From: Escherichia phage RB32
Sequence record: NC_008515.1
Length of the DNA stretch: 64,000 nt
Reading direction: 5' to 3' (one strand)
The translations under genes and the position numbers were made by a program. Numbering within the stretch: position 1 is the first letter of the stretch; each line of letters opens with the position of its first letter. Under the pieces are notes generated by a model, which was given only the letters and a program-made list of their open reading frames with translations, searched no databases and was not told where the DNA came from. Below, piece by piece: positions 2,695 to 63,501 of this stretch.

Positions 2695-4319
<1,625 letters not shown>

Positions 4320-14723: not shown

Positions 14724-14891
14724 CTATAGCAAAAGTTGTGTTTCATTTAATTGTTCTTCCGAACTTTCTGAAACTGGTAGTTCTTTAATGTAATTATAAC
14801 AAGGCCCAGGATGTACAGGACCTTTGTCTGTTTCAACAACCAATGCAGAATCGATTGGAGTTTTACAGACAACACAAATCTTATCTGACAT
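14724..14891 (-). CDS. Small Cys-containing protein, 55 aa (position of T4 uvsY.-2); not in the ORF track
   Basis: Hand translation MSDKICVVCKTPIDSALVVETDKGPVHPGPCYNYIKELPVSESSEEQLNETQLLL; ATG preceded by GGAGA SD; CxxC...C pattern. Confidence 0.55.
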   Translation of the reverse strand: MSDKICVVCKTPIDSALVVETDKGPVHPGPCYNYIKELPVSESSEEQLNETQLLL

Positions 14892-59736: not shown

Positions 59737-59752
59737 GGGGCTTTGCCCCTTT
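59737..59752 (+). terminator. Hairpin GGGGC-TTT-GCCCC after gene 37, merging into the gene 38 SD
   Basis: Stem-loop then TTTGGAGAAAATT-ATG; same architecture as the uvsW/uvsW.1 junction. Confidence 0.45.
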
Positions 59753-59762
59753 GGAGAAAATT

Positions 59763-60563
59763 ATGGCAGTAGTTGGAGTTCCTGGCTGGATTGGAAGTTC
59801 AGCCGTAAATGAAACGGGTCAGCGCTGGATGAGTCAAGCAGCTGGTCAATTAAGATTGGGTGTTCCTTGCTGGATGAGTCAATTTGCAGGTCGCTCAAGA
59901 GAAATTATTCATACACTTGGAGCGGACCATAACTTTAATGGTCAATGGTTCCGAGATAGATGTTTTGAGGCAGGTAGTGCACCTATAGTGTTTAATATTA
60001 CCGGAAATTTGGTATCATATTCTAGAGACGTTCCTTTATTCTTCATGTACGGAGATACACCTAATGAATATGTTCAGTTGAATATTGGTGGCGGCGTCCA
60101 TATGTGGGGTAGAGGTGGACAAGGTGGATGGACTCATTCCGGCGGAGATGGTAATGGTCAACAAGGTGGTCATTGTATTCAAAATGACATCGGTGGACGA
60201 TTAAGAATTAATAACGGTGGAGTAATTTGTGGTGGAGGTGGAGGTGGAGGTGGTATCGCTTATCGTCCTCACTCTGGTGCAAAATGGCAAGATATTGGTG
60301 GTGGTGGAGGAAGACCATTTGGCCCAGGAGGAGGCGGAGGTTATTCCGGCGGCGCAGCTTCTTATGATGGCCCAGGAGGTGGTTATAATTATGGTAATGC
60401 TCACTCTGGCCAGGGTGGTGATGCTGGCGCAAATGGACAAAATGCCTGGCATGATGGCGGTAAAGTTCTAAAAGTTGGAGCTGGTGGCGCTGCCGGATAT
60501 GCTGTTATAGGATCAGCTCCAACATGGCAAAATGTTGGAGTAATATATGGTCCAAGGGTATAA
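59763..60563 (+). CDS. 38: gp38 receptor-binding adhesin (T2/T6 type, glycine-rich motifs)
   Basis: ORF track starts at TTG 59751; ATG at 59763 gives 266 aa starting [19 protein letters not shown]; poly-Gly motifs separate variable segments. Confidence 0.9.
60229..60342 (+). repeat. Glycine codon tracts (GGT/GGA/GGC runs) encoding the gp38 glycine-rich motifs
   Basis: Runs at about 60231-60254, 60297-60312 and 60323-60340; they generate the spurious antisense/alternate-frame ORFs in the track. Confidence 0.75.
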
Positions 60564-61251: not shown

Positions 61252-61524
61252 TTATTTGTTTGTATACATTTCTAAATATCTATATACACCCTCAAAACCC
61301 TCGTTGAATTCGTCGATGAGGGTTTTCTTATCTTCTTGAGTTAATTCAGAAACAATTTTACGGAATGAATTCTGATTTAATTTTCTACCTTCATGTGTTA
61401 CTCCAATCTCATTCAGAAATGCAATAAAATTAGCACGATTCTCAACAATATCTTCTCTGGAAAATTTAATCAAAATAGACGCAACAGTAATAATTTCACG
61501 AACTGTATCAATGTTTTTATTCAT
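61252..61524 (-). CDS. asiA: AsiA anti-sigma70 factor
   Basis: 90 aa; recognised sequence MNKNIDTVREIITVASILIKFSRED. Confidence 0.95.
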   Translation of the reverse strand: MNKNIDTVREIITVASILIKFSREDIVENRANFIAFLNEIGVTHEGRKLNQNSFRKIVSELTQEDKKTLIDEFNEGFEGVYRYLEMYTNK

Positions 61525-61536
61525 TAACTATACCAC

Positions 61537-61689
61537 TCAATTAGTTGACTTTGTTATAATATCATCAGACGCTTGATTTGTAAACTGGTCTGTGCTATTT
61601 TCTTCAAAAATTTTTTCTACGAATTCCTTGAACGACTCGCGTTCCTGAGCTGCATTATGCTCGATTACCTTTTCAAGATTATGACTCAT
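61537..61689 (-). CDS. Small acidic ORF (50 aa) between arn and asiA; not in the ORF track
   Basis: Hand translation MSHNLEKVIEHNAAQERESFKEFVEKIFEENSTDQFTNQASDDIITKSTN; ATGA overlap with the arn stop. Confidence 0.45.
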   Translation of the reverse strand: MSHNLEKVIEHNAAQERESFKEFVEKIFEENSTDQFTNQASDDIITKSTN

Positions 61690-61964
61690 TCGAAATAATC
61701 TTCAATTTCGTAATCATGGACATAAATCATTATAGTTTTTAATATATCATCAATACTTTTTCCTGGAGCTGGAATTACGTAGAAATATCCTGCTTTTGAG
61801 AGGTCTTTATAAGTTCCAACCAAGAAATCATTATTCTCGAGATGTAGTTCTTCAACTAATTCATTGACAATTGAGTGATATAGATTTGGTAGAAACTTAT
61901 ATAGCTTTTCTAGAATATCAATTTTGATTGTATATTGAACCACAGATTGAGAATCAATAATCAT
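61686..61964 (-). CDS. arn: Arn anti-restriction nuclease (McrBC inhibitor)
   Basis: 92 aa acidic protein; recognised T4 Arn sequence. Confidence 0.85.
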   Translation of the reverse strand: MIIDSQSVVQYTIKIDILEKLYKFLPNLYHSIVNELVEELHLENNDFLVGTYKDLSKAGYFYVIPAPGKSIDDILKTIMIYVHDYEIEDYFE

Positions 61965-62073
61965 AGACCTTCCCCTTATGTTTCTGTTTGCGATTAGATT
62001 CTTTAAACGCTTTCTTCTTATCTTTATGGACAGAAGCTTTATTAAAATTATGTTTTGCGACTAAATTGTTCAT
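61954..62073 (-). CDS. Possible small lysine-rich ORF (39 aa) overlapping the arn start; not in the ORF track
   Basis: Hand translation MNNLVAKHNFNKASVHKDKKKAFKESNRKQKHKGKVYDY; overlaps the 72-aa ORF in another frame, so only one may be real. Confidence 0.3.
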   Translation of the reverse strand: MNNLVAKHNFNKASVHKDKKKAFKESNRKQKHKGKVYDY

Positions 62074-62266
62074 AATGCTGAATTACCTCTCTTAAACATT
62101 TGCATGTGAATGAAAACTTTTTAGCTACACCACATTCAAATATGTGTTCTCTTAAATCGCGTGTATCAGTATATCCCATCTCAACAATAAAATGTCGTAT
62201 TAGATTTTTATCTTTATCGTTTAGAGAATTAAAATAATCAGATTTTGAATTAATTTCCCTGGCCAA
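62048..62266 (-). CDS. Hypothetical protein (arn.x cluster)
   Basis: 72 aa ORF. Confidence 0.5.
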   Translation of the reverse strand: MAREINSKSDYFNSLNDKDKNLIRHFIVEMGYTDTRDLREHIFECGVAKKFSFTCKCLREVIQHYEQFSRKT

Positions 62267-62546
62267 ATTGAATCACCTTCAGTTGACGTTTTAACTCTTT
62301 TATCATTTCTTCGTTCATCGCAATATAAAGATCGCGTAAAGCAGGTTTTAGCATTCCATTTACCGGAGAACTAAATGGACATACATAATCTTTTCCTACG
62401 AGCTTTTTGGCGAATTCCATATCGCAGAACTTAAATCCCGGCTCATTGGTATAAATTCCCCAATTAGTTGACATCATTTTATTGGCATATTCCAATGCCT
62501 GGATTTGATTAGTAATTCCATCAATTTGAAACTTTTTAATATTCAT
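62250..62546 (-). CDS. Hypothetical protein (arn.x cluster)
   Basis: 98 aa ORF. Confidence 0.55.
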   Translation of the reverse strand: MNIKKFQIDGITNQIQALEYANKMMSTNWGIYTNEPGFKFCDMEFAKKLVGKDYVCPFSSPVNGMLKPALRDLYIAMNEEMIKELKRQLKVIQFGQGN

Positions 62547-63013
62547 TAGTAAAGGTCCTCAGAGTAAAGTTCTTTTTCACTACCACCACGTTCAATACGT
62601 ACTTGTCCAGCGTAAGTTGCAATAATCATTGCTTCTTCACGTGTCCAATAATTACTATATTGATCAATAAACCCTTGGTCATCATCACAAACATGGTCTG
62701 ATACAAGTTTATCACTTACCTGGTCAAGAACTTCAGCCATATCTTTAGAATAATGACGAGCACCAGGAATAACCAGAGTCCCACCATCTTTTAACTTAAA
62801 GCGGTTGGCTGCACACACAATTCGACGTTGATATTTTTCATTATTGTTCCAATGAGCTACTTGCCAACAGATTTCAGGAACCTCTTCTAAAACATCCTCT
62901 TCCGTATATTCGGTGTAGTCGCCATAGGCCTGTAATTTAGCTGCTAGACTTTCTGGAGTTTCACGTAATAAAGCCAGGTCTAATAATTCAAGACGCTCTT
63001 TGAAGGTTTTCAT
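62546..63013 (-). CDS. Hypothetical protein, 155 aa (arn.x cluster)
   Basis: ORF with ATGA coupling at both ends; no motif recognised confidently. Confidence 0.6.
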
Positions 63014-63165
63014 TTGGTTTCCTCAACACTTTTAATTTTTATAGCTTGTTTAGAACTTTCAAAGCATTGACAATATACTCTTACCGCATCAAACTGGTTG
63101 GCCGCTTTAAGATGGACTACACCTTCGCCGTTATAAAATTCTACGACAATTTTAAATGTTTTCAT
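63010..63165 (-). CDS. Small ORF (51 aa) linking two neighbours by ATGA overlaps; not in the ORF track
   Basis: Hand translation [51 protein letters not shown]; ATGA overlaps at both ends. Confidence 0.5.
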
Positions 63166-63491
63166 TTAAACCATCCTTTAATACGTTGCCATAAAGTTTT
63201 CTGTTGAGCTTTGTTAACACCAATTGAGCGAATAACTGGTTGAGATTCATGGAATTCTTTATAATCAGCAAGGTAAATTTCGTAAGCTGAATCCATAAAG
63301 GAACTTATAGCTGCCATGAAATTATTGCGAATACCTACTGGAGCATCTTTACTTTCACGAATAATCATGTATTTACCAGTCTTAATCTTTACAATAGTTC
63401 CAAGATAAGCTCCATGGTACCAAATATCCCAACCCTCTTGAGTAGGTTCTGCACAACGACGAAGTTCATTAACAATTTCTAACTTGTTCAT
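63162..63491 (-). CDS. Hypothetical protein (arn.x cluster)
   Basis: 109 aa ORF. Confidence 0.55.
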   Translation of the reverse strand: MNKLEIVNELRRCAEPTQEGWDIWYHGAYLGTIVKIKTGKYMIIRESKDAPVGIRNNFMAAISSFMDSAYEIYLADYKEFHESQPVIRSIGVNKAQQKTLWQRIKGWFK

Positions 63492-63501
63492 TATTTATTC
63501 C

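Follow-up and report, generated by a model that had tools for sequence, protein, structure and literature searches.

Does the early region between motA and asiA of Escherichia phage RB32 (NC_008515.1) contain small open reading frames (ORFs) that are real genes, and if so, do they act in host takeover or anti-defence? The window analysed here is a 64,000-nucleotide stretch of this genome; all coordinates refer to it, and every feature described lies on its minus strand. An initial annotation, made from the sequence alone, had proposed three small unannotated ORFs in this region, and reading of the sequence bore out their coordinates and their lengths of 50, 39 and 51 aa (61537-61689, 61954-62073 and 63010-63165, all on the minus strand). 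A further 55-aa CxxC ORF that it had placed near uvsY was likewise found at 14724-14891 (uvsY.-2, RB33_183; ORF scan and RB33 annotation). We consider it very likely that the three ORFs are genuine, catalogued small protein-coding genes in a packed early block. They differ in standing: the 39-aa ORF is a core gene, asiA.1 (50 aa) is weakly constrained and the 51-aa ORF is an optional cassette.

The three ORFs had been described as unannotated, which does not hold. Phage RB33 (KM607001.1) is 100% identical over the region, and its GenBank record carries all of them and the 55-aa ORF as CDS, with asiA.1 as RB33_248, the 39-aa ORF as RB33_250 and the 51-aa ORF as RB33_254; the omission of the small ORFs from the ORF track most likely reflects a length cut-off. 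ORF length is uninformative here, with 197 ATG-initiated ORFs of at least 39 aa in the window against about 120 in shuffled sequence, and a probability of ~0.01-0.03 that any one of the specific slots lacks stops. It is conservation that makes the case for real genes. We compared presence, intactness and junctions over 35 related loci, and a scan of viral contigs with Arn as the query yielded no loci beyond this comparison set. Across phage records, the three ORFs differ in spread, with the 51-aa ORF found in 84 records, asiA.1 in 483 and the 39-aa ORF in 1195.

The ORFs lie in an early block, in a T-even phage, of co-directional, tightly packed genes with gaps of at most about 12 nt, and we read the order as motA, arn.4, 51-aa ORF, arn.3, arn.2, arn.1, 39-aa ORF, arn, asiA.1 and asiA. 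The proposed asiA-arn context was confirmed using Pfam: the anti-sigma-70 factor gene asiA (RB33_247; 61252-61524) matches AsiA (1e-42) and arn (RB33_249; 61686-61964), which encodes a DNA-mimic inhibitor of McrBC, matches DM_Arn (2.6e-53). It also holds that the ORFs are real genes of the early cluster, which extends from motA via the arn genes to asiA. Upstream, arn.4 encodes a 109-aa protein (RB33_255; 63162-63491; phrog_1594, 9.1e-54) and arn.3 a 155-aa protein (62546-63013; phrog_839, 2.8e-72) with only a sub-threshold Pfam match, to Prok-E2_B; PDB sequence searches for these two proteins returned no relative. The next gene is arn.2 (RB33_252; 62250-62546; phrog_1844), which in T2 is reported to be targeted by ArcZ, a small RNA of the host (preprint, bioRxiv 10.64898/2026.06.19.733364). 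For arn.1, annotated in GenBank as 62048-62179 only (43 aa), the ORF scan and a conserved N-terminus indicate a 72-aa long form with a TTG start (62048-62266), of which the N-terminal 29 aa are kept in 21 loci; other genera start this form with ATG.

All three ATGA stop/start overlaps that had been claimed can be read in the sequence: the arn stop (TGA) with the asiA.1 start (ATG; 61686-61689), the arn.4 stop with the start of the 51-aa ORF (63162-63165), and the stop of the 51-aa ORF with the arn.3 start (63010-63013). These junctions are conserved in relatives, in 11/11 loci for asiA.1 and, at both ends, in 4/4 loci for the 51-aa ORF, whose distant homologue in Klebsiella phages likewise has an ATGA overlap at its end. 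No ATGA junction occurs at the 39-aa ORF: its start lies 26 nt before the stop of arn.1, and its final 11 nt are shared with the beginning of arn. A Shine-Dalgarno-like GAGAGGT (62085-62091) lies within the arn.1 coding sequence, 11-12 nt upstream of the start of the 39-aa ORF, and an AGGT at equal distance recurs in other genera. At about 12 nt, the GAGAGGT is rather distant from the start codon.

In T2, the genes from arn.4 to arn are carried on one polycistronic transcript (preprint, bioRxiv 10.64898/2026.06.19.733364), and the conservation of the ATGA junctions fits translational coupling within such a transcript. Ribosomes would pass from gene to gene via overlapping stop and start codons, reaching asiA.1 and the 51-aa ORF through ATGA, while the 39-aa ORF may use its own Shine-Dalgarno-like site, with the next gene beginning 8-26 nt inside its 3' end. 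Judging by this geometry, the ORFs are probably translated from long early or middle transcripts that arise by read-through; a search for a MotA-box middle promoter inside the block found none. Early gene arrays translationally coupled by ATGA overlaps are standard in T4, and T4-like genomes have regions of variable gene content. The block resembles the T4 early arrays in its co-directional small genes, its 4-nt overlaps and its content varying at gene boundaries among relatives, and differs from them in nothing; it is a textbook example. With the ORFs annotated, one of them detected by mass spectrometry and ATGA coupling usual in T4, the observation itself adds nothing new. The three ORFs are already known, and they are ordinary except for the widely conserved 39-residue basic peptide. 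The by-products of the analysis are modest: DUF7230 as a core gene, a lesson from the detection of asiA.1, and the repeats around the 51-aa cassette.

The region had also been proposed as a host-takeover or anti-defence island. Searches of Pfam, PHROGs and NCBIfam returned only families of "unknown function" for the three ORFs and no anti-defence or takeover family, with no NCBIfam match for any of eight proteins, and a literature search found no paper on asiA.1 function, DUF7230, PF23876, T5p086 or RB32ORF252c. No family, fold or literature result gives a host-takeover or anti-defence role to any of the three, and the island reading has its basis only in the neighbours AsiA, Arn and MotA.

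The 39-aa lysine-rich ORF (61954-62073; RB33_250) had been graded merely as possible; it is actually by far the best conserved among the three. It was found in 35/35 loci, intact in 33, and many of these loci lack Arn. The peptide (12 K/R, pI 10.2) is a member of DUF7230 (Pfam PF23876; 44.9 bits against a gathering cut-off of 27, E 1.2e-11) and matches phrog_1359. It has the family motif N-x-VAK..FN..H.D.K...RKQKHK at a size typical of the family (36-50 aa), and the core motif positions that it shares (N, VAK, FN, H-x-D, K and KHK) are invariant or nearly so in alignments of 9, 64 and 135 members. No feature sets it apart from the T4-type members. The T5-type members have only the N-terminal ~25 residues in common with it, and their tails are acidic rather than basic, so the basic tail is not the defining feature of DUF7230. 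With pN/pS of 0.17 and synonymous sites near saturation, its protein sequence shows strong conservation between genera. By these comparisons, the 39-aa ORF is a core gene with the signature of strong purifying selection, and the strongest gene of the three. In the T4 reference record the frame is intact and 100% identical, yet carries no annotation. It is therefore expected to be absent from the proteomics search database, and the peptide, being so rich in K/R, is expected to be nearly undetectable by trypsin proteomics. DUF7230 belongs to the core of the early region in T4-like phages, is widespread in phages and is under strong selection, yet studies based on the T4 gene list would overlook it.

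This conservation could in principle belong to something other than the peptide. If the 39-aa ORF were a regulatory upstream frame that opens the downstream start site, the peptide itself would be irrelevant; consistent with this, in 31/33 loci the downstream gene, whichever it is, begins inside the 3' end of the ORF with an overlap of 8-26 nt, and the arn Shine-Dalgarno site lies within it. We consider a regulatory-only frame unlikely, however, as the peptide is conserved across genera despite the near-saturated synonymous sites, 14 residues are invariant in nine divergent phage homologues, and DUF7230 has 563 cluster representatives, spread over phage types and contexts that are unrelated. 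It is far more doubtful still that conservation across the three ORFs reflects RNA elements, either structured RNAs or small RNAs, and not proteins. ArcZ does pair with the operon, and an RNase E site is found there (preprint, bioRxiv 10.64898/2026.06.19.733364), but there was no Rfam match at E ≤ 1 with a meaningful score, the region of the 39-aa ORF folded no better than shuffled sequence (z = +0.82), and substitutions are codon-periodic in the 39-aa and 51-aa ORFs. The absence of an Rfam family and of a stable fold over the 39-aa ORF rules against the RNA explanation.

Taking the 39-aa ORF as a protein-coding gene, what might its product do? Its structural model (pLDDT 71, pTM 0.32) contains a single short helix, and the peptide is predicted to have no globular fold. 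Long DUF7230 proteins, checked for domain fusions, provided nothing informative, and the neighbourhoods of distant members (T5, a Zobellviridae phage and metagenomic contigs) had no recurring functional partner. The peptide may dock on a partner of negative charge from host or phage, for example a nucleic acid or a nucleoprotein machine, and we infer binding to a polyanion. One speculative proposal, which we hold to be improbable, is that the DUF7230 peptide is a widespread phage micro-protein that docks through its invariant RKQKHK tail on the ribosome of the host or on some other RNA machine, with an action like that of ArfA but not necessarily its ancestry. If true, the peptide would contribute to redirecting translation in early infection.

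A stricter version, in which the 39-aa peptide is itself ArfA-like and its basic tail enters the mRNA channel left empty in stalled ribosomes, rescuing or blocking them during host mRNA destruction, seems to us very improbable. ArfA, whose gene is regulated via non-stop mRNA, a mode with no evident counterpart at the 39-aa ORF, is also small and very basic with a comparable charge pattern; by eye, a VxKxKK...RKxKH pattern is common to both. Free ArfA is unfolded, and the 39-aa peptide is predicted to be largely so. E. coli ArfA gives a weak DUF7230 match (E 0.11), and one phage-contig protein, P0119, scores above both Pfam cut-offs, bridging the two families like a chimera: its N-terminus is that of DUF7230, and it carries KKGKGSYxRKxKH, the hallmark of ArfA. 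Against this, no significant sequence or profile similarity was found. The 39-aa ORF had no match to Pfam ArfA (PF03889) even at E ≤ 10; hhalign of DUF7230 against ArfA gave a probability of 0.4% and P of 0.17, with P of 0.38 also obtained; and a broader DUF7230 profile scored 9.8 against ArfA, a score equalled or exceeded by 9/30 column-shuffled ArfA controls. The DUF7230 profile hit no PDB chain at E ≤ 10, and therefore no ArfA chain, and ArfA was not among the families matched in a Pfam scan of 135 diverse DUF7230 members. P0119 is a singleton for which searches found no relatives on the ArfA side. The KGKGS motif is missing from the 39-aa ORF, whose sequence reads KKKAFKESNRKQKHKGK, KKGKGSY being present in the singleton P0119 only, and the T5-type DUF7230 tails are acidic. 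Homology to ArfA is thus unsupported by Pfam, by the PDB profile search, by hhalign with the shuffled controls, by the 135-member scan and by the search for P0119 relatives.

The 50-aa acidic ORF (61537-61689; pI 4.6) is asiA.1 (RB33_248), as indicated by annotation and by phrog_3762, which it matches at E 9.2e-37 with residues 1-50 on profile positions 1-50 of 50. It is the same gene as T4 asiA.1 (NP_049867), to which it is 96% identical: both encode 50 aa, occupy the slot between arn and asiA and overlap arn by ATGA, and they differ by three to four amino-acid substitutions. Mass spectrometry of infected cells had been suggested as a check on the ORFs, and for this one the answer already exists in T4, where AsiA.1 protein was detected by LC-MS in infected cells (PMC9697503, Tables S2/S4). 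Its pN/pS of 0.40, calculated from 15 distinct alleles with 17 variable sites only, compares with 0.06 and 0.13 in the flanking genes arn and asiA, 0.17 in the 39-aa ORF and 0.14-0.45 in the 51-aa ORF. asiA.1 is translated, but the constraint on its peptide sequence is weak.

The 3' half of asiA.1 contains a promoter-like site, TTTACA-17 nt-TATTAT with TG before the second hexamer (61556-61584; 10/12 in a consensus scan), with an A/T-rich stretch upstream of it, and this site is probably the asiA early promoter, an assignment that we infer. It is conceivable, and we give this serious weight while leaning against it, that asiA.1 has no function as a protein gene, its frame having been left open by chance together with the constraint on asiA-promoter DNA, and the peptide being a translated by-product. 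The embedded promoter-like site agrees with this, as do the higher pN/pS than in the flanking genes and the even distribution of variable sites over codon positions (5:6:6). Two of the 15 distinct alleles carry frameshifts, a natural one in phage a15 that leaves a truncated product of 28 aa and a 2-nt deletion in phage T2 that alters the C-terminus, and the gene is limited to close T4 relatives that also carry arn. The detection of the protein in T4 infection speaks against a mere by-product, as does a pN/pS that remains below 1. The alignment covers at least 80% of the frame length in all 483 records, with intactness checked in the 15 alleles (13 intact). Moreover, the N-terminal 30 residues of AsiA.1 match two more small-protein PHROG families (5245 and 24016), and a 54-aa ORF in another genus begins likewise with MSHNLE. 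A PDB sequence search for asiA.1 found nothing. By our reading, asiA.1 may serve above all as a bridge on which ribosomes leaving arn move on towards asiA, over the embedded promoter-like site. The lesson from asiA.1 is that detecting a protein is no proof that its function is constrained.

The 51-aa ORF (63010-63165; RB33_254, and RB32ORF252c in the RB14 record) belongs to phrog_15636 (E 1.9e-40, residues 1-51 on profile positions 1-51 of 51). About one relative in eight carries it, whereas T4, T2 and most of the others lack it. In RB32-, RB14- and PP01-like phages it occupies the slot between arn.4 and arn.3, and many copies are 100% identical. Of the 84 records, 8 are Klebsiella phages (53% identity); in Klebsiella Marfavirus phages the homologue (53% identical) instead lies directly after motA. 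Comparison with a QL01-like phage gives a pN/pS of 0.14, and comparison with the Klebsiella homologue one of at most 0.45; an AlphaFold2 model (pLDDT 82) has three strands. Together, these point to a small protein, predicted to be beta-rich, under apparent purifying selection. Foldseek of the model against viral models and the PDB found nothing below E 0.03; T7 Gp2 and phage p56 came up at E 2-5 only, which is noise.

Two 10-nt direct repeats bound the 51-aa cassette, as determined from the sequence and from alignments with cassette-less relatives. Both copies read AAATGAAAAC, one across the start of the 51-aa ORF (63158-63167) and the other across the start of arn.3 (63006-63015), 152 nt apart. 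Recombination between the copies would restore an arn.4/arn.3 ATGA junction as in T4. The cassette is optional and was probably gained or lost by this putative route, which would make it a clean case of gene gain and loss via short repeats at gene starts.

An ORF scan placed three small ORFs of the asiA-arn-motA cluster exactly where the initial annotation had them, all on the minus strand: asiA.1 (61537-61689; 50 aa, acidic, pI 4.6), a lysine-rich ORF of 39 aa (61954-62073; 12 K/R, pI 10.2), and an ORF of 51 aa (63010-63165). The ATGA overlaps claimed for the first and last of these were all present in the sequence, on the minus strand, at 61686-61689 (arn stop and asiA.1 start), 63162-63165 (arn.4 stop and 51-aa ORF start), and 63010-63013 (51-aa ORF stop and arn.3 start). 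ORF length by itself is no evidence for genes here: ATG-ORFs of 39 aa or more number 197 in the window and about 120 in shuffled sequence, and the probability of each specific slot being stop-free is about 0.01-0.03.

We found matches to the 61252-63500 stretch in 675 phage records. Its 2249 bases are 100% identical to those of the T4-like Enterobacteria phage RB33 (KM607001.1; species Tequatrovirus RB32). The RB33 record annotates all three ORFs as CDS (RB33_248, with the note “asiA.1,” RB33_250, and RB33_254), the PP01 record annotates asiA.1 and the 39-aa ORF, and the T4 reference record annotates only asiA.1. T4 lacks the 51-aa ORF; its 39-aa frame is intact and encodes a protein 100% identical despite nucleotide differences. 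A 55-aa CxxC ORF on the uvsY side is RB33_183, or uvsY.-2, and PHROG families 3762, 1359, and 15636 already cover the three ORFs. The sequence observation was correct, but these genes, described initially as unannotated, were already catalogued. Over the 4.2 kb compared, the window differs from KM607001.1 by one extra G near 60114. With this G, gp38 (59751-60563, plus strand) encodes an intact glycine-rich adhesin of 270 aa; the RB33 record in GenBank has a frameshift at this point and annotates a truncated CDS of 146 aa.

The 39-aa peptide, the sole item here worth follow-up, is encoded by a core gene that is subject to strong selection, widespread in phages, and missing from the T4 reference gene list. 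It scored above the Pfam cut-off for DUF7230 (44.9 bits vs 27). A translated search of 50,697 phage records found it in 1195, across many T4-like genera. It was also present in all 35 related loci that we drew from phage records and a viral-contig collection (intact in 33), including many without arn, asiA.1, and arn.1. Its pN/pS was 0.17, with synonymous sites near saturation (Nei-Gojobori counts against the window). The two damaged copies were in locus L030 (4081-4149), where the ORF is cut to 22 aa, and locus L016, where it has no usable start. A structure model from a 64-sequence alignment showed no globular fold (pLDDT 71, pTM 0.32). We expect that this frame was missing from the T4 proteomics search database, because the T4 reference record does not annotate it, and its K/R content would probably defeat tryptic detection. 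DUF7230 as a whole comprised 563 cluster representatives among 1.84 billion proteins (E ≤ 0.001), and its T5-type members have only the N-terminal ~25 residues in common and carry acidic tails. In T5-like phages, these are proteins of 52-79 aa in which the DUF7230 N-terminal motif (MRNFVAKNDFNRASTH.D.K) is followed by an acidic rather than a basic tail; phage T5 T5p086 (4001-4237 in the T5 loci L039/L040) sits between nucleotide-metabolism and exonuclease genes.

Inspection by eye suggests a likeness between the 39-aa peptide and ArfA, a ribosome-rescue factor, and one protein on a phage-like contig, P0119, exceeds the Pfam cut-offs of both ArfA and DUF7230. Every statistical test of this kinship failed: Pfam gave no ArfA match to the 39-aa ORF at E ≤ 10, the DUF7230 profile had no match in the PDB, hhalign of DUF7230 against ArfA gave P values of 0.17 and 0.38 (9 of 30 column-shuffled controls did at least as well), ArfA was absent from the families matched by 135 diverse DUF7230 members, and no ArfA-side relatives of P0119 were found. 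ArfA-like action is an idea of low probability, not a finding. P0119 itself (47 aa; 1262-1405 on the metagenomic phage contig L038) is a singleton in which a DUF7230 N-terminus is combined with the ArfA hallmark KKGKGSYSRKNKHK, with Gp80-like, T4-spanin-like, and NUDIX genes as neighbors.

The block is an essentially gapless co-directional array in which stop/start overlaps are conserved wherever the genes occur, and relatives carrying asiA.1 or the 51-aa ORF keep the ATGA junctions. The 39-aa ORF lacks such a junction; its start, preceded by a Shine-Dalgarno-like GAGAGGT, lies 26 nt before the arn.1 stop, and arn starts within its last 11 nt (ATGATTATTGA). The gene 3′ of it, whichever that is, begins 8-26 nt inside its end in 31 of 33 loci. 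Together with the conserved overlaps, this geometry fits the translational coupling proposed initially, which would act on read-through transcripts; the anti-defence role also proposed there is a hypothesis. Searches for an RNA explanation turned up neither a matching RNA family nor a stable RNA fold. No function could be assigned to the ORFs: NCBIfam gave no matches, and PDB sequence searches with arn.3, arn.4, and asiA.1 returned nothing.

asiA.1 was found in 483 of the 50,697 phage records (translated search) and was confined to loci with arn (11 of 35, with the ATGA overlap in every one). Mass spectrometry, a check suggested at the outset, has detected the protein in T4: AsiA.1 (Q9T0T0) belongs to the “early RNA, late protein” class of a time-resolved proteome, which requires LC-MS detection, and Arn and Arn.1 to Arn.4 were likewise detected (PMC9697503, Tables S2/S4). 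Its pN/pS against the window was 0.40 (13 synonymous and 24 non-synonymous changes, Nei-Gojobori), compared with 0.06 for arn and 0.13 for asiA, and variable sites among 15 distinct alleles were distributed 5:6:6 by codon position. A 1-nt insertion cuts the product to 28 aa in phage a15, and a 2-nt deletion rewrites the C-terminus in T2. The 3′ half contains a promoter-like site (61584-61556, minus strand; TTTACA, 17 nt, TATTAT, with TG before the second hexamer) with an A/T-rich stretch upstream and asiA just downstream. Given this site and the weak constraint on the peptide, we hold with moderate confidence that asiA.1 matters less for its protein than as a translated link between arn and asiA. 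In a neighboring genus, a 52-54-aa ORF fills the arn slot directly after the 39-aa ORF (locus L017, 4023-4187; also L013, L015, L018, and L027), and the L017 ORF, the one whose sequence was read, begins with MSHNLE, as AsiA.1 does. This common start hints that gene starts may be reused as recombination points.

The 51-aa ORF occurred in 84 of the 50,697 phage records, 76 at ≥ 90% identity and 8 in Klebsiella phages at 53%, and in 4 of the 35 loci, with ATGA at either end. Compared with a QL01-like phage, its pN/pS was 0.14; for the Klebsiella homologue the value was no higher than 0.45. The 10-nt sequence AAATGAAAAC occurs as a perfect direct repeat at its two boundaries (63158-63167 and 63006-63015), and relatives without the ORF have just a single copy, where arn.4 meets arn.3; recombination between the repeats would be the simplest account of its gain and loss. 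Foldseek with an AlphaFold2 model (pLDDT 82, three strands) gave no match below E 0.03.

Among the other arn genes, arn.3 (62546-63013, minus strand) had a sub-threshold match to the prokaryotic ubiquitin-conjugating-like family Prok-E2_B (E = 0.006, 17 bits vs a cut-off of 25.4, 39 residues only), which is probably noise. arn.1 (62048-62266, minus strand), annotated as 43 aa, is probably 72 aa, initiating at a TTG (62266) that is preceded by the Shine-Dalgarno site AAGGTGA; the N-terminal extension of 29 residues is conserved in 21 loci from several genera, where it begins with ATG. If so, what a 2026 preprint on ArcZ and RNase E in T2 uses as the “70-nt intergenic region” separating arn.2 from arn.1 (bioRxiv 10.64898/2026.06.19.733364) would be coding sequence. 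The same preprint shows a single transcript running from arn.4 to arn in T2 and gives the functions of arn.1 to arn.4 as unknown. Finally, positions 3455-3457 of the T4 reference (NC_000866, locus L003; equivalent to window 63489-63491) read ATA in place of the ATG with which the 109-aa arn.4 begins in RB33 and 28 other loci; the T4 frame is open across all 109 codons and is annotated only as 68 aa from an internal Met.
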